Source: Shigella phage Henu11. From it: DNA of 64,000 nt. Positions 6,317-35,851 of this stretch are shown here, in pieces. The DNA lies in the sequence record OM953433. One strand, 5' to 3'. The translations under genes and the position numbers were made by a program. Within the stretch, counting starts at the first letter, position 1, and each line of letters begins with the position of its first letter. Under the pieces are notes generated by a model. The model ran no database searches, was not told where the DNA came from, and saw only the letters and a program-made list of their open reading frames with translations.

Positions 6317-6345
6317 TTGACAGGGGCTGAAAAGCCCCTTAGAAT
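6317..6345 (+). promoter_or_regulatory. sigma70-like promoter TTGACA-N17-TAGAAT with hairpin in spacer
   Basis: ttgaca 6317-6322; spacer contains ggggctgaaaagcccc; tagaat 6340-6345. Confidence 0.5.
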
Positions 6346-7570: not shown

Positions 7571-7611
7571 AGTGTATAATTATCTGCATGTTTAACAAAA
7601 TAGGAGTGCAA

Positions 7612-8160
7612 ATGAAGAAATTTGTTTTAGGTTTGTGCTTATTCTTTACAGCACATTTAGCTACAGCGTCTGACTGTCCAGAGCTTACAATCAGCCAGAA
7701 AGTTAATATGTTAAAAGCATATAACTATGGCGAAGGACAGATGGGAAAAGGTTGGGGAATCCCTTTAGCAGCTATAGCCTTACAAGAGTCACAATTAGGT
7801 GTCATGTTAGAAAATAAAAAGACTCATGATTATGGTGTTTTCCAAAATCACTTGAAGACTGTTGTAAAGCGTAACAAGGTATCTCCAAAGGTTGCTAAGA
7901 AGAAGCTAGTAAGTGACTTCCATTACTCAGCGAAAGAGGCTCATAAGGAGCTATTATTCTGGACTAAGGTTCATGGTAACCCAGATGGAAAGTACTCTAT
8001 GAAGCGTGTCCTAGCTTCTTATAATGCTGGTTACAAATACAAGATTCCAAAGGCTAGACAATACTCTCAAGATGTGTACAATAACATGAAACTGCTTGCT
8101 CAATGTGAGTTTGCAACAAACATTAAAAAGGTAAAATATGAGCGAATCAAAACAATTTGA
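7612..8160 (+). CDS. secreted protein with lytic-transglycosylase-like motif
   Basis: ORF track (start moved to ATG 7612 behind AGGAG); signal peptide MKKFVLGLCLFFTAHLATA; AIALQESQ...YGVFQN resembles SLT domain. Confidence 0.45.
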   Translation: MKKFVLGLCLFFTAHLATASDCPELTISQKVNMLKAYNYGEGQMGKGWGIPLAAIALQESQLGVMLENKKTHDYGVFQNHLKTVVKRNKVSPKVAKKKLVSDFHYSAKEAHKELLFWTKVHGNPDGKYSMKRVLASYNAGYKYKIPKARQYSQDVYNNMKLLAQCEFATNIKKVKYERIKTI

Positions 8161-8833
8161 TATGGTTCTGTGTCATGCTTATGATATTAAGCCACTTGAT
8201 TTAGATATCAGTTCTGCAAGTTGGTCAGATATTGCTAAAGCTGACTTTGCAGATACAGCAAGAAATGTTGTGTGTAGATTTGAAGACTTCCACTCAACAA
8301 AGACACAGATTCCTTGTCAGGATTTGCTAACAGGTAAAACTGTAGATGTTGGTCGTAACAGCCTTATCTTGGTTGCAAAGAACTTGGAAGAAAAACGTAA
8401 AATGGTCTTAGCAGACATTGACGGTGTTCTTACAAGCTTTAATAAGGAGCTTAATGCAACTTTGTTAGATGATGGTACTTACTCACAGTATACTAACTTG
8501 GTAGACTCTCGCAGAGCTAAACCAACATATGTTTTTAACATCCTGTGTGGTATATCAAGAAATGCTGATATAGGATTCTTAACTGCTCGTGGAGAATCAC
8601 AAAGAGTTGTCACACATCTTTTCCTGAATGAGAATGTAGACAGTGATTTCCTACTGTTTATGCGTGGATTTGGTGACAATGAGATTAGTGCAGAAAGTTT
8701 GAAAGTTCGTATGCTTCAGTCTTGCATTCTACCTTACTATGATGTAGTATGCTTTATAGAAGATACAGTGAAGAACGTGGCAAAGGTTGAAAGAATCTTA
8801 CCACACATCAAAACAATGCTTGTTAAAAACTGA
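8138..8833 (+). CDS. hypothetical protein
   Basis: ORF track 231 aa. Confidence 0.55.
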   Translation: MSESKQFDMVLCHAYDIKPLDLDISSASWSDIAKADFADTARNVVCRFEDFHSTKTQIPCQDLLTGKTVDVGRNSLILVAKNLEEKRKMVLADIDGVLTSFNKELNATLLDDGTYSQYTNLVDSRRAKPTYVFNILCGISRNADIGFLTARGESQRVVTHLFLNENVDSDFLLFMRGFGDNEISAESLKVRMLQSCILPYYDVVCFIEDTVKNVAKVERILPHIKTMLVKN

Positions 8834-9361: not shown

Positions 9362-9709
9362 ATGACGTTTAAAGAATTTTGTCAAGCAGCTTTTGTAATC
9401 ATTTTCTTAATAGGTGTTGGTGCTTGGGGAGGTTACACTTACAAGACCAGTCAAGTTAATGAAAAGGAGTTAACTAACCAGAGACTTGTAAGTGTTGCTA
9501 AAGATGCTTATCAAGAAGGTTTATCAAATCTTAGCTCCAATTACAAAAATGATTTGAAAGATGTGCTTGCTAAAAACAAACACACCAAAGAGGTATTGAA
9601 CTATGAAAAAACTAAGACAGTCTTTATTAATGATTGTGCTACTGAGCCTTATGTCAGGGTGTTCAACGAACAAAGTGAACAGTACCTTCAAAAACTCCCA
9701 AGTAAGTGA
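9362..9709 (+). CDS. membrane protein, i-spanin-like (N-terminal TM plus charged helical region)
   Basis: ORF track; N-terminal hydrophobic segment FVIIFLIGVGAWGG; 3' end overlapped out of frame by a lipoprotein ORF. Confidence 0.45.
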   Translation: MTFKEFCQAAFVIIFLIGVGAWGGYTYKTSQVNEKELTNQRLVSVAKDAYQEGLSNLSSNYKNDLKDVLAKNKHTKEVLNYEKTKTVFINDCATEPYVRVFNEQSEQYLQKLPSK

Positions 9710-11674: not shown

Positions 11675-11744
11675 TAAGTTACCCAGATAAACATAGACAA
11701 GCCCTCCAAAGTTTGAGTTTAAAATCTCAGGTAAGGAGGGCTTT

Positions 11745-11930
11745 TTCATTTTAAATTTGTGCAGGTATAGTTGCATAGAACTCTGGACAGATTTCTTTAG
11801 CTGAACTCCAAAGGGAAAATTCATTTCAAATTTGTGCAGGTTTAGACTCCAAAGGGGTTTTTCATTTTCAATCTGTGCAGATGCAGTTGGACTCCAAAGG
11901 GAAAATTCATTTTCAGTTTGTGCAGGTAGG
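11745..11930. repeat. four tandem copies of a ~50-65 bp unit ending in TTCATTTT-N-TTGTGCAGGT
   Basis: copies end near 11766, 11831, 11881, 11928. Confidence 0.6.
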
Positions 11931-12099
11931 TAGCTGTAGGAAACCAGCCCCACCATCCCCTCTTACTCCCCTTCCTCCCAAAAGTCAAGATAAAAATTTG
12001 TAGAGAACTCAAAAATAATTCTTGACTAGATTCCTGTTTTAGTGTATCCGCATACGTGCGTTCTATTCACGAAACATCAAAAATATTTTTAAAAATTTT

Positions 12100-12127
12100 G
12101 TTGACTTCATAAATCCAGTCTTATAGT
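12100..12127 (+). promoter_or_regulatory. putative promoter (TTGAC-like -35, TATAGT -10)
   Basis: gttgac 12100-12105, tatagt 12122-12127. Confidence 0.4.
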
Positions 12128-12178
12128 ATTTGCATCAACGGGAAACATCCCAACAATCCTAAACTGGAGAATCTGAAA

Positions 12179-12385
12179 ATGTTATATCAACGTGAGTTAA
12201 TGATTGTTGACAACAACAAAACAAATAAACGTCGTTTCTATATGCTAATTTGTGATGTTTGGCAACGTATCTCAGAAAAAGATTTTGATAAATATGTTAA
12301 TACGTCAATCAGGTCAGATTGTTACTTGACAAATCATACAAGACAGTTTACAAGACATACAGCAATTTATTATTACAACGTTTAA
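12179..12385 (+). CDS. hypothetical small early protein
   Basis: ORF track; conserved leader. Confidence 0.5.
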   Translation: MLYQRELMIVDNNKTNKRRFYMLICDVWQRISEKDFDKYVNTSIRSDCYLTNHTRQFTRHTAIYYYNV

Positions 12386-12397
12386 GAAGGCTTGACA

Positions 12398-12559
12398 ATG
12401 ATTAAAGAAAACGATGTAATACAATACAAAGATTTAGACGGATACCTAAAAATTGGTAAAGTCTTCTATCTCTATAAATCTGCTATGGGTAATAATTGTG
12501 TAGCCCTTACAAATGGCGATAAAATAACCATGAAAGATTTTATAAAAATTATTGCATAA
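12398..12559 (+). CDS. hypothetical small protein (53 aa)
   Basis: Unlisted ORF; AAGAAGG SD. Confidence 0.3.
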   Translation: MIKENDVIQYKDLDGYLKIGKVFYLYKSAMGNNCVALTNGDKITMKDFIKIIA

Positions 12560-12564
12560 AGTAC

Positions 12565-12593
12565 TTTACATGGGGTTTAAAAGCTAGTATCTT
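12565..12593 (+). promoter_or_regulatory. hairpin-embedded promoter TTTACA-N17-TATCTT
   Basis: lies within inverted repeat ggggttt...aagcccc. Confidence 0.4.
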
Positions 12594-12643
12594 AAGCCCC
12601 AGATAAAGAGCTTTACCAACAATCCTAAACTGGAGAATCTGAA

Positions 12644-13024
12644 ATGAAATATCGTGCGCCTAAATTTATCAACAAAGAAAACTTTCGTAGTATCTTAGAG
12701 GAAACTATGAAAGAAAACTTCAAAGGAAAAATAATTGTTGTTCACGCTTACAATTTTAAGTATGATGTTAATGGTAACCGTATCAACCACTACAAAGCTA
12801 CTATGCTTGACGGTACATTATCCGGTGAAAAAGCTATCATAAATGCTATTGCAGGACGTGGTAAAACTGTGATACGATGCGAAAAAAGACGCTATCAAGG
12901 CGGAAAATATGGATATGAAGATGCAATGTATCATCTTGATAAAATGGGGTATGATGTAGAGAAAGCTGGAGTATCCCAAACTATTGGTAGTGACGGCTAC
13001 GTTACAGTTTTCAAAATTAATTAA
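12644..13024 (+). CDS. hypothetical small early protein
   Basis: ORF track; conserved leader. Confidence 0.55.
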   Translation: MKYRAPKFINKENFRSILEETMKENFKGKIIVVHAYNFKYDVNGNRINHYKATMLDGTLSGEKAIINAIAGRGKTVIRCEKRRYQGGKYGYEDAMYHLDKMGYDVEKAGVSQTIGSDGYVTVFKIN

Positions 13025-13033
13025 ATAAAGTCC

Positions 13034-13062
13034 TTTACATGGGGTTTATAGTTAGATAAGAT
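13034..13062 (+). promoter_or_regulatory. hairpin-embedded promoter TTTACA-N17-TAAGAT
   Basis: same cassette architecture. Confidence 0.4.
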
Positions 13063-13114
13063 AAGCCCCAGATAAAGAGCTTTACCAACAATCAACCTAA
13101 ACTGGAGTATCAAA

Positions 13115-13372
13115 ATGGCTACTATCAAAAACATCATTGTATCTGCAAAATCTCGTGATGACGCTCGCGCAACTGCTAAAAAACTAAATGGTAAAGTGGT
13201 TGACAACGGAAAAGAATCTGCTGTAAGATGGGGCGTGAAATGTGATAAGGAAATTACTTTAAAACGTAGTTCCTATGACCTTTTCAAAGGTGTAAAAGCA
13301 ATCGGTAGAACTAACGTCTACACGAAGAAAGGTTATAAAATGCACTTATCATTAACTGACAATTTAATCTGA
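13115..13372 (+). CDS. hypothetical small early protein
   Basis: ORF track; conserved leader. Confidence 0.55.
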   Translation: MATIKNIIVSAKSRDDARATAKKLNGKVVDNGKESAVRWGVKCDKEITLKRSSYDLFKGVKAIGRTNVYTKKGYKMHLSLTDNLI

Positions 13373-13380
13373 TAAAGTGC

Positions 13381-13409
13381 TTTACATGGGGTTTATAAGT
13401 TGCTAGTAT
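13381..13409 (+). promoter_or_regulatory. hairpin-embedded promoter TTTACA-N17-TAGTAT
   Basis: same cassette architecture. Confidence 0.4.
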
Positions 13410-13464
13410 AAGCCCCAGATAAAGAGCTTTACTAACCAATAGTCCTAAACTGGAGAATCTTAAT

Positions 13465-13977
13465 ATGTCATACGTTGAAGCTACCTTTGAAGTTCAAAAA
13501 GAAAAATTCACTATCATCTATGAAGCTGTTAATATTTGTGAAGCATCCCATTGTGTGGAAAATTGGAAGTTTACCGATGAGCACAAAGGCGGGGTTACAA
13601 TCAAACTTAAAAATCCAGAGCGTAACGGGTACAAATATGCAATTCCACAGCATTACAGCCTTTCTCAATTGATGAGTGATTATGCTAAACAAGGCCGCGA
13701 AAATCCATCTATAGAGGCTTACAAGAGCTTACAAGATGAATTACAAAGAGATTTAGAGGCTAACAGCTATGTACTATTTGCAAAGGTAGAAGATAAAGAA
13801 GGTAATACGGTATTAAATAGCTTTTCACTTGCTTATGGTTTCGATTGGTGTTATCTTGACGGGGAAGATTTAGATTCACGATTAGAAGAGGAAGTGTCGA
13901 ACTCCGATGGAGAATCTGAAGTAATGGAACGTTTGGAAGACTTGAAAGATTCTGTTATGAATATCTTTAATATCTAA
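13465..13977 (+). CDS. hypothetical early protein
   Basis: ORF track; conserved leader. Confidence 0.55.
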   Translation: MSYVEATFEVQKEKFTIIYEAVNICEASHCVENWKFTDEHKGGVTIKLKNPERNGYKYAIPQHYSLSQLMSDYAKQGRENPSIEAYKSLQDELQRDLEANSYVLFAKVEDKEGNTVLNSFSLAYGFDWCYLDGEDLDSRLEEEVSNSDGESEVMERLEDLKDSVMNIFNI

Positions 13978-13982
13978 AGTGC

Positions 13983-14011
13983 TTTACATGGGGCTATCAA
14001 GTTGATAAGAT
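13983..14011 (+). promoter_or_regulatory. hairpin-embedded promoter TTTACA-N17-TAAGAT
   Basis: same cassette architecture. Confidence 0.4.
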
Positions 14012-14060
14012 AGCCCCAGATAAAGAGCTTTACCAACAATCCTAAACTGGAGAATCTAAA

Positions 14061-14357
14061 ATGTTTATTGCCGCAAACGTTAGAACTAAATTAAGCCAGC
14101 TATTAAGCAATATTCAATTCATTGAATCCATGCGCCGTACCTCTGAAGCCGTAGAATGGTATCACGGAAAGATTGACAAAAGGGAAGTTGTGATTTGTGT
14201 ATGGAGCTTTTGTAAAGAATACAGAAAGCCGTTGCTTCAGATAGATATCTATGATAATGCTAATAAATCAGCTATTAAATCCACAAAAGATATGGTAGAT
14301 TCTTATGAAATTAGTCACACTGGTAAACTATTCCACAAAGGTAAAAACAAATGCTAA
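14061..14357 (+). CDS. hypothetical small early protein
   Basis: ORF track; conserved leader. Confidence 0.55.
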   Translation: MFIAANVRTKLSQLLSNIQFIESMRRTSEAVEWYHGKIDKREVVICVWSFCKEYRKPLLQIDIYDNANKSAIKSTKDMVDSYEISHTGKLFHKGKNKC

Positions 14358-14698
14358 TCACATACACTGCAATTTTTATCTCTATTGTGGCGCTCTATAA
14401 AGCCTTGCAAGCGCACAGTATAGCTAATAAGGCACTTACAAGGGATTTAAAAATAAATCTTGTACGGGGCTTTTTAGAGCGTTTGAGCTTAGAACAATTG
14501 AAACGTTTAGAGATGAGCTTTCGATTCAAAGCAGAGACATACCGGATTGATAACATCCTAGATGGTGATTTTAAATTAATCAGTGATTATGACATACTTC
14601 TTGAGTCAATTCAAGATATAAACCTGAAAGATTATTATATTGTAATAGCACAAGAAATTAATAAAAAAGAGCTTGCAATGCAGAATCAAAACAAGTAA
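14351..14698 (+). CDS. hypothetical protein with N-terminal TM segment
   Basis: ORF track; start overlaps upstream stop. Confidence 0.5.
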   Translation: MLITYTAIFISIVALYKALQAHSIANKALTRDLKINLVRGFLERLSLEQLKRLEMSFRFKAETYRIDNILDGDFKLISDYDILLESIQDINLKDYYIVIAQEINKKELAMQNQNK

Positions 14699-14756
14699 AG
14701 TATTCATCAACGGGGCAAGATAGAAGCCCCAACAATCCTAAACTGGAGAATCTAAA

Positions 14757-15029
14757 ATGTATACTACTAATGACGGTCGCACTTTGAACGTAACTTTAAA
14801 ACACTATGTAGACGGTGTATTAAACTTTGAAGAGTTAAGAGCAGAACAGCAACTATTAGATTGGCAAGTAGCAGGTTTACAAAAAACCGCTACAGGATAT
14901 GGAAAGAAAATTCCTACATCTTGGAAAGTTCGATACCTTGGAAAGTTACGCAGAATTTATCAAGATGTTTATAGTAATAGCGGTGTAAGTTACATTATTG
15001 TTAGTGGTAAAAAGTTGTATTTAGTCTAA
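14757..15029 (+). CDS. hypothetical small early protein
   Basis: ORF track; conserved leader. Confidence 0.55.
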   Translation: MYTTNDGRTLNVTLKHYVDGVLNFEELRAEQQLLDWQVAGLQKTATGYGKKIPTSWKVRYLGKLRRIYQDVYSNSGVSYIIVSGKKLYLV

Positions 15030-15037
15030 TAAATTGC

Positions 15038-15066
15038 TTTACATGGGGTTATCAAGTTGATAAGAT
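15038..15066 (+). promoter_or_regulatory. hairpin-embedded promoter TTTACA-N17-TAAGAT
   Basis: same cassette architecture. Confidence 0.4.
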
Positions 15067-15118
15067 AGCCCCAGATAAAGAGATTTACCAACAATCAACC
15101 TAAACTGGAGTATCAAAA

Positions 15119-15526
15119 ATGACTAATGTTAATCACAAAGAAGTTGCAATTTTGAAAGCACGTTTGACCATTAACCGCATCAACATTGTAACATCAGCAG
15201 CGCCAGACGAAACACTGCATAATATCATCGGCAAAATTCAGGGCGTAGTAGTAGACACAAAACAGCTTAAAGAGTCCTTGCAAGATGTAGCAGCAGGGGC
15301 TATAATTGACGGTGCTCAATATGAGATGAAGGAAATGCTGTCAAAGTCAAAAGTAATGAATAAAGAACTTGACTTGAAAATGTTTAGATTTGCTGTTAAA
15401 GTGTGGCTATGTGTTGATTTTGATGCAAACTTTGCAATTGCTGATTTCTTTGCAACATGGTTACAGCGTAACTTACCGGTCGAAGTTTTCCGTGAAATCT
15501 GCGATGCAATTTATTCAGAGATTTGA
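15119..15526 (+). CDS. hypothetical early protein
   Basis: ORF track; conserved leader. Confidence 0.55.
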   Translation: MTNVNHKEVAILKARLTINRINIVTSAAPDETLHNIIGKIQGVVVDTKQLKESLQDVAAGAIIDGAQYEMKEMLSKSKVMNKELDLKMFRFAVKVWLCVDFDANFAIADFFATWLQRNLPVEVFREICDAIYSEI

Positions 15527-15611
15527 TTGACATTGCAAAAGCATAGTAGTAGAGTACTCATCAACGGGGCAAGTTAGAAGCCCCAACAATCCTAAACTGG
15601 AGAATCTGAAA

Positions 15612-15860
15612 ATGTTTAATATGTTGAATATCCCTGACACTTGCCGACTCTTAACACAATTTGATAACCTTGGTAAGCCGTTTTTATATCATATGCCAGA
15701 TAACACTGCAAAAACTTACAGTTACATTGTAAACCGTTTTACGGCTTATGGTTCAAAGTATGGCTATAATGTCAAGACTCAAAAGGTGACTTTGTTCACA
15801 AGTATTGAAGAGTTACCAACTGTTGCCGTTAAACTAATCTTTACAAAGAAAACTAAATAA
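15612..15860 (+). CDS. hypothetical small early protein
   Basis: ORF track; conserved leader. Confidence 0.55.
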   Translation: MFNMLNIPDTCRLLTQFDNLGKPFLYHMPDNTAKTYSYIVNRFTAYGSKYGYNVKTQKVTLFTSIEELPTVAVKLIFTKKTK

Positions 15861-15865
15861 AGTCC

Positions 15866-15894
15866 TTTACATGGGGTTTAAAAGCTAGTATATT
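15866..15894 (+). promoter_or_regulatory. hairpin-embedded promoter TTTACA-N17-TATATT
   Basis: same cassette architecture. Confidence 0.4.
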
Positions 15895-15944
15895 AAGCCC
15901 CAGATAAAGAGCTTTACCAACAATCCTAAACTGGAGAATCTAAA

Positions 15945-16502
15945 ATGAAATGCTTCCACGGTACTACACAAGAAAACTTCGTAAATCTTATTAATGGCGG
16001 TGATAAACCATCAGGAGCTTGGAATTGCTCTGATATGGATGGATGTTTTTATGTCTACCCTGTTAGCAAGTTCTATGATGTAGAAAATCTGGATGACGAA
16101 CAAATCATAGATGAAGGTATTAGAAACGCGCTTGATAGCGCAAGCATTACAGCAGCCTATCAAATGAAGTCACAAAAACTTGTCATCTTGGAACTAGATA
16201 TTCCAGAAGATGATTTACAAGATGACTGGAGTTGTGAGAACATGAGCGACGTCGCAAGCTTTACAGAATATTTCGATAAAGAATGGATTAAAAAGGTTTA
16301 CACAACTGAATTTAATGCTATGTATGCGCCTTTCTTTGTCCCTAACCTGAATAATAGGAACTTGGGTTATATACCGGATGAGTTACACAACATTGCGGCA
16401 ATAGTTCAACGTAGTGATGAGATGAATAATGTTTATATTGATATCTTCGAGACTATGCAATGTAACGTAGCAGAAACGGCTATAAACGACTTAACAGCAT
16501 AA
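15945..16502 (+). CDS. hypothetical early protein
   Basis: ORF track; conserved leader. Confidence 0.55.
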   Translation: MKCFHGTTQENFVNLINGGDKPSGAWNCSDMDGCFYVYPVSKFYDVENLDDEQIIDEGIRNALDSASITAAYQMKSQKLVILELDIPEDDLQDDWSCENMSDVASFTEYFDKEWIKKVYTTEFNAMYAPFFVPNLNNRNLGYIPDELHNIAAIVQRSDEMNNVYIDIFETMQCNVAETAINDLTA

Positions 16503-16565
16503 ACGATAGAATCATACCAGTTCACTAGAAAAGCCCCGCACAGGGGCTTACAAGAGGCTTAAAAG

Positions 16566-16796
16566 ATGCTTACAACAATCTATCTTATCCTATCTATCTG
16601 CAATGGTTCACAATGTGACTTTAAAGGTCTGGAAGAGTTTACAGGTAGCGAAAATAATGCTATTGTTGCCTGTCAGATAGCAAGGCAAGACTACCCAACA
16701 TCGGATGATATCCAATGTTACTATAAATCAGAAGATGATGAAGGGATTTACTTTGATAGTGTGAATGGTGAATATGAGATTCTTATAGAAAAGTAG
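16566..16796 (+). CDS. hypothetical small protein
   Basis: ORF track 76 aa. Confidence 0.45.
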   Translation: MLTTIYLILSICNGSQCDFKGLEEFTGSENNAIVACQIARQDYPTSDDIQCYYKSEDDEGIYFDSVNGEYEILIEK

Positions 16797-16886
16797 TTGA
16801 CACTAAAAACGCAAACAAGTAAAGTATTCATCAACGGGAAGGAAACTTCCCCACTAAACAAAATTCCTAAACTGGAGAATCTGAAA

Positions 16887-17228
16887 ATGGCCTATGTAAC
16901 AATTATCACCGATAAAGAAAATTCGTCATGGTCTACCCAAGTTAACGACAAAATGACACCTATGCAGTGTCTCAAATACTTTGAGCAGTGGAACAGGGGA
17001 GAAGATGTAAGCCCCTTTCAAGTGATGCAGATTGTACATGTTGACAATGAAGGGAATAAAACTACCCTTAACACTGAGTACTATACTACACGTTTCGAGA
17101 CTCGCAAATCAGCTATGCAGGGTTTAAGAGAAAAGGGATATAGTCACATTGCCGCGCTCATTTGGTCTGATTTGCTTAAAAAACAGTCATTAACCTATGT
17201 TAAGCCAGAAAAAATCTTTATAAGCTAA
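16887..17228 (+). CDS. hypothetical early protein
   Basis: ORF track 16797..17228; start moved to the ATG directly after the conserved leader. Confidence 0.5.
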   Translation: MAYVTIITDKENSSWSTQVNDKMTPMQCLKYFEQWNRGEDVSPFQVMQIVHVDNEGNKTTLNTEYYTTRFETRKSAMQGLREKGYSHIAALIWSDLLKKQSLTYVKPEKIFIS

Positions 17229-17355
17229 TCAACAACTTATAAAAATCTTTTGAAAAACTATTGACAATGCCCCTTGACAAGTGTAACTTTGTTCGAGGGG
17301 GTTTATCTAAAAGGATTCACTTAAAAGATTCTTTATAGATAAGCGTAAAAAGTAC

Positions 17356-17384
17356 TTGCAAAGGTTTAATCATATCTATATAGT
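17356..17384 (+). promoter_or_regulatory. promoter TTGCAA-N17-TATAGT
   Basis: ttgcaa 17356-17361, tatagt 17379-17384. Confidence 0.45.
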
Positions 17385-17423
17385 ATCTTCAAAAGGCAAC
17401 TTCCTAAACTGGAGAATCACAAA

Positions 17424-17564
17424 ATGTTAGATATCATTAAAAACCCTATCCTTTGCGGTATGATTGTTTCTGTTGTGTTGCCATTAGCAATGCTCATCAT
17501 TGGTGAAATCTCAGATAAACTTTTTGATAAAAAACTACTTGCAATACAGAATCAAAACAAGTAA
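17424..17564 (+). CDS. small hydrophobic protein (46 aa)
   Basis: Unlisted ORF behind a leader variant; C-terminus LAIQNQNK mirrors the end of 14351..14698. Confidence 0.35.
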   Translation: MLDIIKNPILCGMIVSVVLPLAMLIIGEISDKLFDKKLLAIQNQNK

Positions 17565-17628
17565 AGTATTTATCAACGGGGAGGGAGACTTCCCCACTAA
17601 ACAAAATTCCTAAACTGGAGAATCTGAA

Positions 17629-18156
17629 ATGAACAAGTTCCAAGCAATTAATCATATCCGTTCCAATGCAGTAATGAGCAAGCCAGTAAAAGACACCTTC
17701 GAATTCCGCTGTAATGATAAGTTGTTTGCAGTCATTACAAAAGGGGAAGATAAAAAGTATTATGTACATCGCCAAAACGTTAAGTTAGTAACAGCAGACA
17801 ACTTTATGAAAGCTGTTGCAACAATCCTACCGGATTTTATGGAACTGGTAGCAGAACTTTGTGAACACTGCATCAAGTCATCAAAGGCAGAATTAAACCG
17901 CTTTAAAATGGCTTATGAGCGTTCTATCAAGTCCCATAACATGTATATCATGCCATTGGCTTTTGGTACTCAGGCAATGGGAACAGGTTGTCATCCTTTC
18001 CACCTTTACGATGTAGAAAGCATTTACCTTAGTGAGTCAAAAGATATTGATTTTAGTTTACAGTTAGGACAAGCATTAAATGATATGATTAAATTACACG
18101 AAAAATCCGTAAAAGATATGCAAAAAGAGCTTGACGAAATCATCGTAAATCTATAA
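17629..18156 (+). CDS. hypothetical early protein
   Basis: ORF track; conserved leader. Confidence 0.55.
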   Translation: MNKFQAINHIRSNAVMSKPVKDTFEFRCNDKLFAVITKGEDKKYYVHRQNVKLVTADNFMKAVATILPDFMELVAELCEHCIKSSKAELNRFKMAYERSIKSHNMYIMPLAFGTQAMGTGCHPFHLYDVESIYLSESKDIDFSLQLGQALNDMIKLHEKSVKDMQKELDEIIVNL

Positions 18157-18216
18157 AGTACTTATCAACGGGGAGGGAATGACCTTCCCCAACAATCCTA
18201 AACTGGAGACTAGAAA

Positions 18217-18480
18217 ATGAATAATCAAGAAATCACTATCCTGTTACAAATCGGTACTGACAAAGAAGATATCCAACTTTGCAAACGTATTGAAAGTGAT
18301 TGGTTCAACGGTGAAATCATCGCAGAATCTTATGAAGTAGTCGGATTCATGAATGGTGAAGTTGTAAGCCATTTCGGTTTAACTAAATCTGAAGCCGTTG
18401 CAAAGTATGACGTTTTATCTTGTGAGATTCTTACAAAATACAATGAAAAAAGACTTGCAACTTATGCAGCAATGAATTAA
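18217..18480 (+). CDS. hypothetical small early protein
   Basis: ORF track; conserved leader. Confidence 0.55.
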   Translation: MNNQEITILLQIGTDKEDIQLCKRIESDWFNGEIIAESYEVVGFMNGEVVSHFGLTKSEAVAKYDVLSCEILTKYNEKRLATYAAMN

Positions 18481-18546
18481 TATTACTTTCAACGGGGAGG
18501 GAGACTTCCCCACTAAAACAAAATTCCTAAACTGGAGAATCTGAAA

Positions 18547-18798
18547 ATGGCTACTATCCGCGCAACTGTTAACAATTTTGGCTTCCATGTATTAGATGTT
18601 AAATTTGATATGGTTGGAACTGGTGATGCTTTCGGTATGATTGAAATGTGTCTGAAGGCAACTATTCAGGACTACAATCCATCGGAAACATTCTGGAAAG
18701 AAACTAAACAGGAAGTTTTAAAGGATGGTGTATCTTCTTACTATTGGGGTGATTCTCTTATCACGCTTTACTACCAAAAATTTGGTGTGATTAACTAA
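18547..18798 (+). CDS. hypothetical small early protein
   Basis: ORF track; conserved leader. Confidence 0.55.
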   Translation: MATIRATVNNFGFHVLDVKFDMVGTGDAFGMIEMCLKATIQDYNPSETFWKETKQEVLKDGVSSYYWGDSLITLYYQKFGVIN

Positions 18799-18839
18799 CA
18801 AGTCGCCGCAACGGGGCAAATAGCCCCAGATACCTATAC

Positions 18840-18862
18840 AGCCCCTTCAATGGGGCTTTTTT
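18840..18862 (+). terminator. rho-independent terminator closing the plus-strand early block
   Basis: agcccc-ttcaat-ggggct hairpin plus T5. Confidence 0.65.
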
Positions 18863-19292
18863 ACGTCTTCCTAGAATCTTACCAGACATTTAGAACAATA
18901 ACTCTATAGCTTACTCTATATCCTCTTATCAAATCAACTTAAATATAAGCCCATAACCCGAAAGGGAAGGGCAATCCCTAAAACGCTCTATAACGCTCTA
19001 TACGGGCTTATCATCTCATCTTAAGCAATCATATTAACCTACTCTTAAAAGCCCTTTATAGAGCTTTCTAGAGCCTTAAAAGAATCTTATAAGGGTATAA
19101 GCTTTATTATCTCGTTAGTATCTTGTGAATGGTTAAACAGGGGCTTGAAAGTTACTTAATAATGTGTTATGGGGAACTAAAAAGAGCTTAAAAGTAACGT
19201 AAAAGATGCTTAAAAGTAACGTAAAAGTTAGCCCCCTTTACATTCTCTTAACAAAATCTTAACAAATGCAACATAGTTATGCTTATTAGAGA

Positions 19293-34765: not shown

Positions 34766-34839
34766 TGTGGCCTTATCATAAATGGATAATGACCCATGCT
34801 GTGAACATGGTCTATACGGGTTCGATTCCCGTAGGTCAC
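34766..34839 (+). tRNA. tRNA-His (GTG)
   Basis: acceptor gtggcct/aggtcac; anticodon arm ccatg-ctgtgaa-catgg; T-arm acggg-ttcgatt-cccgt. Confidence 0.7.
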
Positions 34840-34847
34840 CCCAATTT

Positions 34848-34923
34848 AATAGCTCAATTAGCTTATATGGTTAAAGCGCGTGTCTGAAAAACATGAGAAC
34901 AGGGTTCAAATCCCGATGGGCTA
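34848..34923 (+). tRNA. tRNA-Phe (GAA)
   Basis: acceptor tagctca/tgggcta; anticodon arm cgtgt-ctgaaaa-acatg; T-loop ttcaaat. Confidence 0.6.
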
Positions 34924-34941
34924 CCAACTTTATAGGTGCAT

Positions 34942-35677
34942 AATGAAAGAGATGACAGAACAAAGTAAAGAGATTTTTAATCTCCTTAAAACTGGTAATG
35001 GGTTCTCTAACCCTCTTATTACTGGTGCAGCAGTTCTTGGTGGTACTGTAGCTGCTTCTCAATCATTAGTGAACTCAATTAGTTCTGTAACAGACCCTGC
35101 AACACAACAGATTTTAGTTGCTGCTGGACTGACAACAGCCTTATTAGGAAGCTTCACAACAAGCCTTGGAAGTACAACTTCAACGACAAGTACACTCACT
35201 GAGTATGGACAAAAGTCTGTAGATGAGTTTTCACAACGTATGCAAGTAGCTAAAGGTTACTCTAACGTTATGGGAGCAGCAGGTGAACAGGTTGGATGTA
35301 CACCGTTTAGCGGTATCATGGGCGTAGCTACCGAGTACGGTAATAAAGCGATGGATTTGATTAATACCTCCATAGACGCTGTAAATAGCGTCCTAAGCGA
35401 TTTGCAAGATGCAATCGACCAAGGACTAGATACAATCTCTGAACTCGCTACACAGGCCGTTACAGCGATTAATGAGGGTATTACAAAGATTACTGCATAT
35501 GCTAATGAAGTAACTCAGATGATTGCAGATGAAGCAGCACTGATTGCAGAATACCTGAAAACAAATATTAATGGTTTCCTTGCGAATGTTCTACCAAGCT
35601 GGTTTGACGATTCATGTAAAACTGGTGTGATTGATACTATCGCAACTCCAGAGATGAAAGAAGCTCTGAACAAATAA
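34942..35677 (+). CDS. hypothetical Ala/Thr/Ser-rich low-complexity protein
   Basis: ORF track 34880..35677 trimmed to ATG 34942 to clear tRNA-Phe. Confidence 0.5.
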
Positions 35678-35678
35678 T

Positions 35679-35768
35679 GGAAGATTAACCCTAAAAGGTA
35701 AGGGAGCAGTTTGCTAAACTGCCAGTAACCGAGAAATCGGCGTACCAGTTCAAGTCTGGTATCTTCCT
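35679..35768 (+). tRNA. tRNA-Ser (GCT), type II
   Basis: 90 nt; acceptor ggaagat/atcttcc; anticodon arm gcagt-ttgctaa-actgc; T-arm accag-ttcaagt-ctggt. Confidence 0.7.
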
Positions 35769-35778
35769 CCAATTTAAT

Positions 35779-35851
35779 GTATCGGTGACAGAAATGGATA
35801 TGTGCCTGTCTGCAAAACAGGTTTATGAGGGTTCAAATCCCTTCCGATACT
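35779..35851 (+). tRNA. tRNA-Cys (GCA)
   Basis: acceptor gtatcgg/ccgatac; anticodon arm cctgt-ctgcaaa-acagg; T-arm gaggg-ttcaaat-ccctt. Confidence 0.75.

Follow-up and report, generated by a model that had tools for sequence, protein, structure and literature searches.

Candidate promoter/RNA-hairpin cassettes of PeSL architecture before the small genes of Shigella phage Henu11, a Felix O1-type phage

Why would a phage embed the promoters of its small genes in hairpins, and does such a hairpin act on the promoter itself or on the RNA that is transcribed through it? The question is raised by Shigella phage Henu11 (sequence record OM953433), of which a stretch of 64,000 nucleotides, hereafter the window, was analyzed. 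Within a one-directional block of small "hypothetical" genes, an earlier note on this DNA had described six intergenic cassettes, each with a -35-like TTTACA, a 17-nt spacer, and a TA-rich -10 inside an inverted repeat, and had called them PeSL-like. PeSLs (promoter-early stem-loops) are known from the T4-like phages RB49/phi1, T4/PST, and KVP40/nt-1 (Arbiol et al. 2010, PMC2839356; Comeau et al. 2014, PMC4122927); their promoter, terminator, and mini-circle activities were tested only in RB49/phi1 (PMC2839356). Our analysis makes it very probable that the Henu11 elements are composite promoter/RNA-hairpin cassettes of PeSL architecture, and we regard it as fairly probable that, taken as a whole, they are PeSL-type early-gene expression units in which the hairpin serves as an RNA insulator.

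Six cassettes and their predicted promoters

The pattern TTTACANGGGGN{18,24}CCCC (TTTACA-N-GGGG-N18-24-CCCC) matches the window six times, always on the + strand (12565-12600, 13034-13069, 13381-13416, 13983-14017, 15038-15072, and 15866-15901), against a chance count of 0.00 in 100 dinucleotide-preserving shuffles. When the whole window was scanned, filters off, with a covariance model derived from relatives, exactly these six cassettes, hereafter type A, were recovered at 80 to 89 bits on the + strand and 27 to 37 bits on the - strand, and nothing beyond them above 20 bits. All six have TTTACA, a 17-nt spacer, and a TAnnnT -10 hexamer, with 9 to 10 of 12 consensus matches, and three of them carry a TGn extension. 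The -10 hexamers are TATCTT (12588), TAAGAT (13057, 14006, and 15061), TAGTAT (13404), and TATATT (15889); hexamers and spacers agree with those given in the earlier note.

Each cassette is an intergenic unit of ~90 nt that opens, in A-rich DNA, with the upstream gene's stop codon. The sequence (A)TAAAGTnC lies directly 5′ of TTTACA, and the TAA of the upstream gene falls within it or at most 4 nt away. Cassette 1 (12557-12646) comprises a hairpin at 12557-12615, the -35 TTTACA at 12565-12570, the -10 TATCTT at 12588-12593, a predicted start at A12601, the leader CCTAAACTGGAG at 12624-12635, and an ATG at 12644 (predicted folding energy [dG] of -22.4 kcal/mol, z of -4.2; 86.6 bits). In cassette 2 (13026-13117), the hairpin spans 13026-13084, with the -35 at 13034-13039, the -10 TAAGAT at 13057-13062, the predicted start at A13070, the leader at 13096, and the ATG at 13115 (dG -22.8, z -5.4; 87.3 bits). 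Cassette 3 (13373-13467) has a TGn-extended -10, TAGTAT, at 13404-13409, a hairpin at 13373-13431, the -35 at 13381-13386, the predicted start at A13417, the leader at 13444, and the ATG at 13465 (dG -24.3, z -3.5; 88.9 bits). The upper hairpin of cassette 4 (13975-14063) is 28 nt long, with a C-G pair at stem position 5; here the whole hairpin occupies 13975-14032, the -35 13983-13988, and the -10 TAAGAT 14006-14011, followed by the predicted start at A14018, the leader at 14041, and the ATG at 14061 (dG -28.1, z -5.6; 80.5 bits). Cassette 5 (15030-15121; hairpin 15030-15087, -35 15038-15043, -10 TAAGAT 15061-15066, predicted start A15073, ATG 15119) is distinguished by a compensatory U-A pair in its lower stem, where AAATTGC pairs with GAGATTT (dG -23.4, z -5.1; 81.8 bits). 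Finally, cassette 6 (15858-15947) contains the hairpin at 15858-15916, the -35 at 15866-15871, the -10 TATATT at 15889-15894, the predicted start at A15902, the leader at 15925, and the ATG at 15945 (dG -22.4, z -4.9; 87.3 bits).

Judged from sequence, these elements are likely host sigma70 promoters that would start at the A following CCCC. Use of the promoter finds indirect support in Felix O1, where a 57-bp repeat of this kind (see below) lies directly before genes 16 and 20, both of which are among the genes maximally expressed at 5 min (PMC3185647). Two further promoter candidates at the type A cassettes were rejected. The upstream TAAAGT might serve as a -10 of its own, as it does in the type B cassettes described below, but no hexamer resembling a -35 stands at 12534 or 13003, 16 to 18 nt upstream of it. 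The downstream GCTTTACC, read as a promoter, would have GAATCT as its "-10" and a start beyond the ATG. The initial transcribed sequence is conserved: GATAAAGAG, at +3 to +9 (e.g., 12603-12609), contains TAAAGA, one base off the type B -10 TAAAGT, and a sigma70-dependent promoter-proximal pause is conceivable there. The discriminator of type A, (A)AGCCCC, is very GC-rich.

After the type A hairpin comes a shared unstructured leader, (C)AACAATCCTAAACTGGAGAATCTAAAATG, which includes ..CCTAAACTGGAGAATCTAAAATG and provides every gene with the same ribosome-binding site. The window holds 14 copies of its core, CCTAAACTGGAG, which lie within 12158-18537, without exception on the + strand, and each of which is followed by 6 to 9 nt and an ATG. 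Seven of the other eight leaders are preceded by a second kind of cassette, type B, and the eighth (17403) by a promoter alone. The genes flanking the leaders encode 46 to 185 amino acids and are annotated as "hypothetical proteins" in every annotated relative.

By sequence similarity the window belongs to an Ounavirinae/Mooglevirus phage of the Felix O1 type: the region 12300-16200 shares 96% identity with Shigella phage Sf19 and 78 to 96% with other Mooglevirus/Suspvirus phages (Ounavirinae, relatives of Felix O1). An exact-pattern scan of viral contigs found type A matches on 46 DNA stretches, and a blastn search with one cassette returned 287 phage records, by organism name Escherichia, Salmonella, Shigella, Citrobacter, and Erwinia phages of the Felix O1 type, with no T4-like genome among them. 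When Rfam covariance models were run against the window, only tRNAs reached the gathering score, and nothing within 12300-19000 scored an E value below 0.2.

Fold and conservation of the hairpin

Folding of the + strand as RNA revealed that GGGG..CCCC is only the top of a longer, interrupted hairpin of 59 nt and 21 bp, TAAAGTnCTTTAca (T GGGG..CCCC A) gaTAAAGaGCTTTA. From bottom to top it consists of a 6-bp lower stem (TAAAGT/GCTTTA), a 1x1 mismatch, a 5-bp middle stem in which CTTTA, with most of the -35, pairs with TAAAG, a 2x2 internal loop (CA/GA), a 10-bp upper stem (U-GGGG.../...CCCC-A), and a loop of 9 to 11 nt. All six cassettes adopt this common fold, with a dG of -22 to -28 kcal/mol and a z of -3.5 to -5.6. 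The earlier note had placed the whole promoter inside the GGGG..CCCC repeat; this does not hold for the -35, which ends 1 nt upstream of it, although the -35 does lie inside the longer inverted repeat, which had gone unnoticed. The -35 region and the spacer thus make up the 5′ arm, the -10 begins in the loop and ends in the 3′ arm, and the discriminator lies in the 3′ arm.

The upper stem ends with the predicted start, the A next to CCCC, and the first 15 transcribed bases, AGAUAAAGAGCUUUA, are the 3′ arm of the middle and lower stems. Because the start lies after the upper stem, both 5′ arms would be missing from the cassette's own transcript, which cannot form the hairpin and is predicted to be unstructured (dG -3.4, z +1.05); only read-through RNA from upstream could therefore fold it. 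The 5′ arm of the lower stem includes or abuts the upstream stop codon. A single T occurs in the 8 nt after each stem, which read AGATAAAG, AACAATCC, or ACTAAACA. A terminator scan of the + strand called none of the 13 cassette hairpins (type A and type B together), and no U-tract follows any of them. Terminators with a U-tract do occur elsewhere in the genome, at 9319, 18840, 20382(-), 23631(-), and 46849; the one at 18840-18866 on the + strand, a canonical intrinsic terminator formed by AGCCCCTTCAATGGGGCT and then TTTTTT, closes the + strand cassette block and contrasts with the U-tract-less cassette hairpins. The record of phage wV8 lists Rho-independent terminators on the - strand at 8146-8190 and 9665-9685, opposite to the genes; their positions coincide exactly with one hairpin of type A and one of type B, and they are probably prediction artefacts caused by the palindromes.

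Conservation was followed in sets of 210 copies (64 unique cores), 133 unique copies, and 53 diverse copies, and across four Ounavirinae genera; promoter and hairpin are both kept in about 150 to 210 copies. A TAnnnT hexamer stands at a spacer of 17 to 18 nt in about 62 of the 64 unique cores (210 copies), although the hairpin varies between 28 and 30 nt in length, and the only invariant loop bases in the 53 diverse copies are T-12, A-11, and T-7 of the -10. These are the -10 positions that matter most for sigma70. Among the 64 unique cores, GGGG/CCCC is nearly invariant and the interior of the upper stem varies freely while still pairing; stem position 5 is a U.G pair in half of the unique copies. 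In the Erwinia phage phiEa104, four full cassettes carry GGTG..CACC in place of GGGG..CCCC.

Of the stem cells in the 133 unique copies, 95% are paired, and two-sided changes were found at four pairs: one in the lower stem (G-C in 104, U-A in 17) and three in the upper stem (U-A 104/A-U 28; A-U 101/U-A 24; A-U 42/U.G 30/U-A 29/C-G 26). In the model-derived alignment, 93.4% of cells pair, against at most 56% when the partners are slid, and the covariation score of 0.101 (0.057 in shuffles) was reached by 0 of 500 shuffles. The alignments used were an end-anchored manual one and the model-based one; the latter misregisters two pairs in the 28-nt class, so that 93.4% is an underestimate. A MAFFT alignment was dropped since it put the 1-nt difference of the 28-nt hairpins inside the 3′ arm, inconsistently with the structure. 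Pairing is kept across the four genera at orthologous positions.

Wobble cells in the stems count 233 G.U against 4 A.C, and the structure is therefore selected on the sense strand; read most simply, it would be selected as RNA and not as a DNA cruciform. The earlier proposal that secondary structure occludes the promoter loses its footing on both counts, given that the G.U cells would be mismatched in a cruciform and that an RNA hairpin cannot occlude duplex promoter DNA.

Gene exchange and the proposed role of the hairpin

Region 10.5 to 19.5 kb of the window was compared with eight relatives for insertions and deletions. Five indel loci were found, and at four of them both junctions lie at most 12 nt from a leader CCTAAACTGGAG, although positions no more than 15 nt from a leader make up only 6.5% of the region. 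Sf19 and Sf13 carry two genes and two cassettes at 16859-16889 that the window lacks; ESh22 is without the gene 15612-15860 together with cassette 6; and SUSP1 and SUSP2 are without 17418-17598, SUSP2 also without 18220-18523. The fifth indel (12386-12556) is not bounded by cassettes, a promoter-less gene of 55 amino acids having been inserted between a stop codon and a cassette. At the site of this 55-amino-acid open reading frame (ORF; 12392-12559 in the window), a stretch of Citrobacter phage Mordin has two complete type A cassettes in tandem (1730-1880), and KPS64 and Maleficent have a single cassette and no ORF. Cassette 6 of the window (15866-15901) contains the hairpin variant TTTAAAAGCTAGTATATTAAG, identical to that of the first cassette of KPS64 and typical of position 1, whereas the position orthologous to cassette 6 is occupied by TTTATAGTTAGATAAGATAAG in Sf19, Sf13, Mordin, SUSP1, and Maleficent, and by other variants in KPS64 and SUSP2. 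This pattern suggests replacement of cassettes or gene conversion between positions.

At the sequence level, all the features that define PeSLs are found here, and the label PeSL-like was well chosen. In both systems the parts come in one order: A-rich DNA with the stop codon of the upstream gene, a promoter of the sigma70 type with a spacer of 16 to 18 nt, a stem-loop that overlaps the promoter and has a G-tract, a C-tract, and G.T pairs, a Shine-Dalgarno sequence, and an ATG. The stem-loop occupies matching places, either within the spacer/-10 (type A and the site at 6317) or after the -10 (type B), and in both systems the elements cluster in a variable region before small orphan early genes, with cassette-bounded indels between close relatives (here, 4 of 5 loci). 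Like the cassettes here, the PeSLs of RB49 have no U-tract; read directly, they run TAAAAAGTTGTTGACA-GGGG..CCCC-TATAAT...GGAGAATCAAAAATG, and their flanks, TAAAAAGTTGTTGACAGGGG..CCCC..GGAGAATCAAAAATG, resemble TAAAGTGCTTTACATGGGG..CCCC..GGAGAATCTAAAATG of Henu11. However, PeSL phages are T4-like (Straboviridae), whereas Henu11 falls in the Ounavirinae, and the blastn search with a cassette found no similarity to any T4-like genome; membership thus follows from architecture, not from descent. The geometry differs too. The type A upper hairpin measures 28 to 30 nt and reaches the start site, in contrast to about 17 nt inside the spacer in PeSLs. Unlike PeSLs, type A also has a lower stem, conserved and covarying, in which the -35 region is base-paired to the start of the transcript, making up the 21-bp helix.

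We found no paper in the searchable literature that links PeSLs with Felix O1-type phages. The Felix O1 genome paper lists 57-bp and 39-bp direct repeats, and its authors call secondary promoters and temporal control unknown (Whichard et al. 2010, PMC3185647). The 57-mer, CTTTACATGGGGCTTAAAAGTCTGTAAAGTAAGCCCCAGATAAAGAGCTTTACCACT, is a type A cassette, and the 39-mer, TTGACACTGGTTTTTAGATAGATTAAATTACACATCAAC, is the promoter half of type B. Likewise, DR_1 to DR_9 of the wV8 GenBank record are the same sequences as the cassettes, listed as repeats, and the 14-bp repeat_region of Citrobacter phage Mordin is the shared leader. These sources describe repeats only and assign them no promoter, hairpin, RNA structure, or role in shuffling. 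The cassettes would extend promoter/stem-loop units from T4-like phages to an unrelated myovirus subfamily, the Ounavirinae, which include Felix O1 and several typing and biocontrol phages. They would also give the Felix O1/wV8 repeats, unexplained since 2009-2010, a functional reading, and offer candidates for the early promoters that the Felix O1 paper could not find. One stretch of DNA appears here under two simultaneous constraints, on promoter hexamers and on RNA pairing, which compensatory changes and strand-specific wobbles make unusually clear; ordinary in principle, it is a clean and well-conserved example of a promoter and an RNA structure in one sequence. The cassettes also mark the boundaries of swappable orphan-gene modules, and they may interest phage engineering as compact, portable expression units (promoter, insulator, and ribosome-binding site in about 90 nt).

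In the scheme that we favor, the host sigma70 promoter of each cassette would drive its own small gene, and read-through RNA coming from an upstream cassette would fold the hairpin, which would act as an insulator at the RNA level between neighboring transcription units while marking and protecting the 3′ end of the upstream message. Every small gene would then be expressed mainly from its own promoter. As to the molecular step, the long helix might be cut by an RNase III-type enzyme and/or block 3′ exonucleases, polymerase attenuation being at most partial; efficient intrinsic termination would not be expected at these hairpins. The conserved lower stem cannot serve intrinsic termination, because its pairing is complete only when polymerase has advanced more than 15 nt beyond the upper stem and because its 5′ arm lies at the upstream stop codon, where the terminating ribosome sits; this speaks for a role after transcription. 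That the hairpin acts mainly after transcription and not by attenuating polymerase is nevertheless held only tentatively. In a rough split, processing and/or exonuclease block would take somewhat less than half of the weight, attenuation of polymerase somewhat less than a third, and other steps the remainder. At the DNA level, the 14 near-identical leaders and cassettes would be homology patches for the gain, loss, and swap of genes.

Several points weigh against this scheme. The stem-loop of RB49 PeSL211/210 (GGGGATCACGTATCCCC), likewise without a U-tract when read directly, cut expression of a downstream lacZ as strongly as rrnB T1 (PMC2839356), which favors real attenuation. An E. coli RNase III site calls for about two helical turns (~20 bp or more) of mostly continuous double-stranded RNA. 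Type A has 21 bp, broken by one 1x1 and one 2x2 interruption, and the type B hairpins, of 5 to 8 bp, are too short to be RNase III substrates; if both types worked alike, the mechanism would therefore have to be attenuation or exonuclease block. Many of the copies are related by descent or gene conversion, so that the covariation counts overstate the number of independent events, and several columns of the 133-copy set were fixed by the search pattern, although the model-based set is independent of it. Moreover, the sense fold exceeds the antisense fold in stability by only about 1.5 kcal/mol. Lastly, the searchable literature holds no start-site, 3′-end, or RNase data for any Ounavirinae phage, nor RNA-seq data for Felix O1-type phages, and promoter use and hairpin function are what we infer.

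The RB49 result also argues for a hairpin that terminates or attenuates polymerase arriving from upstream and, by overlapping the promoter, couples termination to re-initiation, much as the earlier note had supposed and as the PeSL authors interpret their elements. GC-clamped stems in nearly every intergenic gap of the block would fit that role, and promoter-terminator overlap is reported as widespread in bacteria (bioRxiv 10.64898/2026.08.19.745784). Such coupling is possible but doubtful here: all 13 of the 13 cassette hairpins lack a U-tract, unlike the textbook terminators used elsewhere in this genome, the conserved and covarying lower stem has no part to play in intrinsic termination, and the arriving polymerase would be released no earlier than the promoter's own +1, by which time it is already past the promoter. 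The bacterial promoter-coupled terminators (Fletcher et al. 2026 preprint, 10.64898/2026.08.19.745784) resemble the cassettes in that the same DNA gives an RNA stem-loop to the upstream unit and a promoter to the downstream unit of tandem genes, but their geometry differs. Their stem supplies the -35, a T-tract forms the spacer, and the -10 follows; the Henu11 cassettes have no T-tract, their -35 stands before the upper stem, and their -10 spans loop and 3′ arm. Read-through transcription may be coupled to some extent to the embedded promoter.

Two explanations would move the function from RNA to DNA. A palindromic operator through which a phage or host regulator shuts off the early promoters, or a promoter-masking cruciform in supercoiled DNA, is suggested by the near-invariance of GGGG/CCCC and by two copies of the 12-bp palindrome TAAAGnnCTTTA on either side of the promoter core, the first covering the -35 and the second +4 to +15, in a classic repressor layout. 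Yet when TAAAGnnCTTTA changes, its internal symmetry is lost and complementarity to the partner copy is kept, as where AAATTGC pairs with GAGATTT (G-C in 95 to 104 and U-A in 16 to 17 unique copies); the upper-stem interior is free to vary as long as it pairs; and the 233 G.U to 4 A.C imbalance is strand specific, which is expected of neither a protein site nor a cruciform. With a 9- to 11-nt loop, a 2x2 internal loop, and wobbles, cruciform extrusion would also be unfavorable, and we consider an element of this kind very improbable. Scarcely better placed, and still improbable, is the idea that the cassettes are chiefly recombination modules or selfish repeats whose hairpin matters as a single-stranded DNA structure or hot spot, as in the PeSL "mini-circles," and not in RNA. 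The indel junctions in the shared leader, the two tandem cassettes of Mordin with no gene between them, and the position-1-type hairpin of cassette 6, where relatives differ, all agree with it, as do the excised circles formed by the PeSLs of RB49/phi1 (PMC2839356); moreover, a top-strand DNA hairpin tolerates G.T better than any other mismatch. However, this idea does not explain why T-12, A-11, and T-7 never vary, at a constant 17 nt from TTTACA, why the cassettes are strictly oriented with the genes (14 of 14 leaders on the + strand), or why pairing is conserved at orthologous positions in four genera. Homology suffices for recombination, which does not need a hairpin, and the junctions fall in the leader and not in the stem.

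Returning to an insulator that works in RNA, a bolder version would have type A dual coded, the same ~60 bases serving in DNA as a sigma70 promoter and in RNA as a helix for RNase III-type processing, so that read-through RNA is trimmed to a near-primary 5′ end; as a conserved design of the early region across the Ounavirinae this seems unlikely. The internal loop, the presumed cut site, lies 2 to 3 nt from the predicted start. If the dual-coded version were true, each early gene would be represented by one uniform monocistronic mRNA regardless of the promoter of origin, with a protective 3′ hairpin retained on the upstream message. The early region of T7 has intercistronic RNase III processing hairpins, R0.3 to R1.3. 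Type A resembles these in being an interrupted helix of about two turns between early genes, with an upper stem of ~10 bp, an internal loop, and a lower stem, in having no U-tract, and in the 3′ hairpin with which the upstream mRNA would be left. The T7 sites, in contrast, do not overlap host promoters, as one upstream promoter set feeds the whole early operon; cleavage here is purely hypothetical, and the type B hairpins are too short for it.

Type B cassettes and other promoter-hairpin sites

The seven type B cassettes, missed by the earlier note, have their -35 at 12101, 14673, 15527, 16797, 17539, 18131, and 18455. Their order is a TTGACA-like -35, a 17-nt spacer, a -10 that is mostly TAAAGT, ~10 nt, a short GGGG..CCCC hairpin, and the common leader; the -35 usually falls within the last codons of the upstream gene, and the -10 overlaps its stop codon. 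A transcript started in the cassette itself would carry the hairpin 2 to 4 nt from its predicted 5′ end. The first of the block (12101-12181; all are on the + strand) consists of TTGACT-17-TAGTAT at 12101-12129, the hairpin GGGAAACATCCC at 12140-12151, the leader at 12158, and an ATG at 12179. The second (14673-14759) has TTGCAA at 14673-14678 inside the end of the upstream ORF and TAAAGT at 14696-14701 over its stop codon, with the hairpin at 14712-14730, the leader at 14737, and the ATG at 14757. The one at 15527-15614 reads TTGACA-17-TAGAGT (15527-15555) and continues with a hairpin at 15566-15584, the leader at 15591, and the ATG at 15612. In the cassette at 16797-16889 (TTGACA-17-TAAAGT, 16797-16825; hairpin GGGAAGGAAACTTCCC, 16836-16851; ATG, 16887), the leader at 16866 is the recombination joint at which relatives have one or two extra genes. 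A G.U pair occurs in the hairpin (17578-17595) of the cassette at 17539-17631, which has TTGCAA at 17539-17544, TAAAGT at 17562-17567, the leader at 17609, and the ATG at 17629. The remaining two lie at 18131-18220 (TTGACG, 18131-18136; TAAAGT, 18154-18159; hairpin, 18170-18190; leader, 18197; ATG, 18218) and 18455-18549 (TTGCAA, 18455-18460; TAATAT, 18478-18483; hairpin, 18494-18511; leader, 18526; ATG, 18547). At 17356-17426, also on the + strand, a promoter (TTGCAA-17-TATAGT, 17356-17384) is joined to the shared leader (17403) and an ATG (17424) with no hairpin.

The promoter repeat of type B reaches ~40 nt into the 3′ ends of upstream ORFs (14658-14715, 17524-17581, 16782-16839, and 18116-18173), and unrelated small proteins therefore share C-terminal tails (..ELAMQNQNK and ..LLAIQNQNK, each followed by the stop). 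Exchange of type B cassettes would swap protein tails along with promoters.

The earlier note had seen the same arrangement recur at 6317 and at 30299-30336. Both are indeed combinations of a promoter with a hairpin, but in sequence and geometry they differ from the six cassettes. The separate promoter upstream of rIIB (6317-6345, + strand; TTGACA..TAGAAT) has its 17-nt spacer filled by the 16-nt hairpin GGGGCTGAAAAGCCCC, the geometry of most RB49 PeSLs. This hairpin occurs twice as identical 16 nt, at 6323-6338 and at 1461-1476, the latter before a gene starting at 1498; no recognizable promoter was found around the copy at 1461-1476. Upstream of the tRNA array, the hairpin GGGTATT..AATACCC (30296-30336, + strand) holds TTGACA in its 5′ arm and loop, with TAATAT just outside, and is homologous to the Felix O1 "terminators" t42/t43, which are annotated as bidirectional. 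A second promoter-like site within 30296-30430, TTGACA-18-TATAGT with ACACTA/TAGTGT in its spacer, is followed by the array of 24 tRNAs (30455-35851).

Upstream of the cassette block lie rIIA/rIIB, a lysozyme-like gene, a polynucleotide kinase, spanins, and a macro-domain gene. In the same early region of Erwinia phage phiEa104, a "predicted T4 endoribonuclease RegB" (989-1501) is annotated beside the polynucleotide kinase. T4 RegB cuts GGAG in the Shine-Dalgarno sites of early mRNA, and every cassette leader has an invariant CUGGAG. The matching gene of the window (7588-8160) was rejected as a RegB-type endoribonuclease, as it looks like a secreted protein and relatives annotate a lysozyme-like domain; no RegB family search was made. 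Between a terminator (about 11700-11745) and the first cassette there is a non-coding gap of ~500 nt (11675-12100), in which about three to four tandem copies of ACTCCAAAGGGAAAATTCATTTTCAATTTGTGCAGG with a period of 45 to 57 nt (11805-11926) are followed by a C-rich run (11945-11975); the tandem repeats are possibly iterons of an origin or a small RNA locus.

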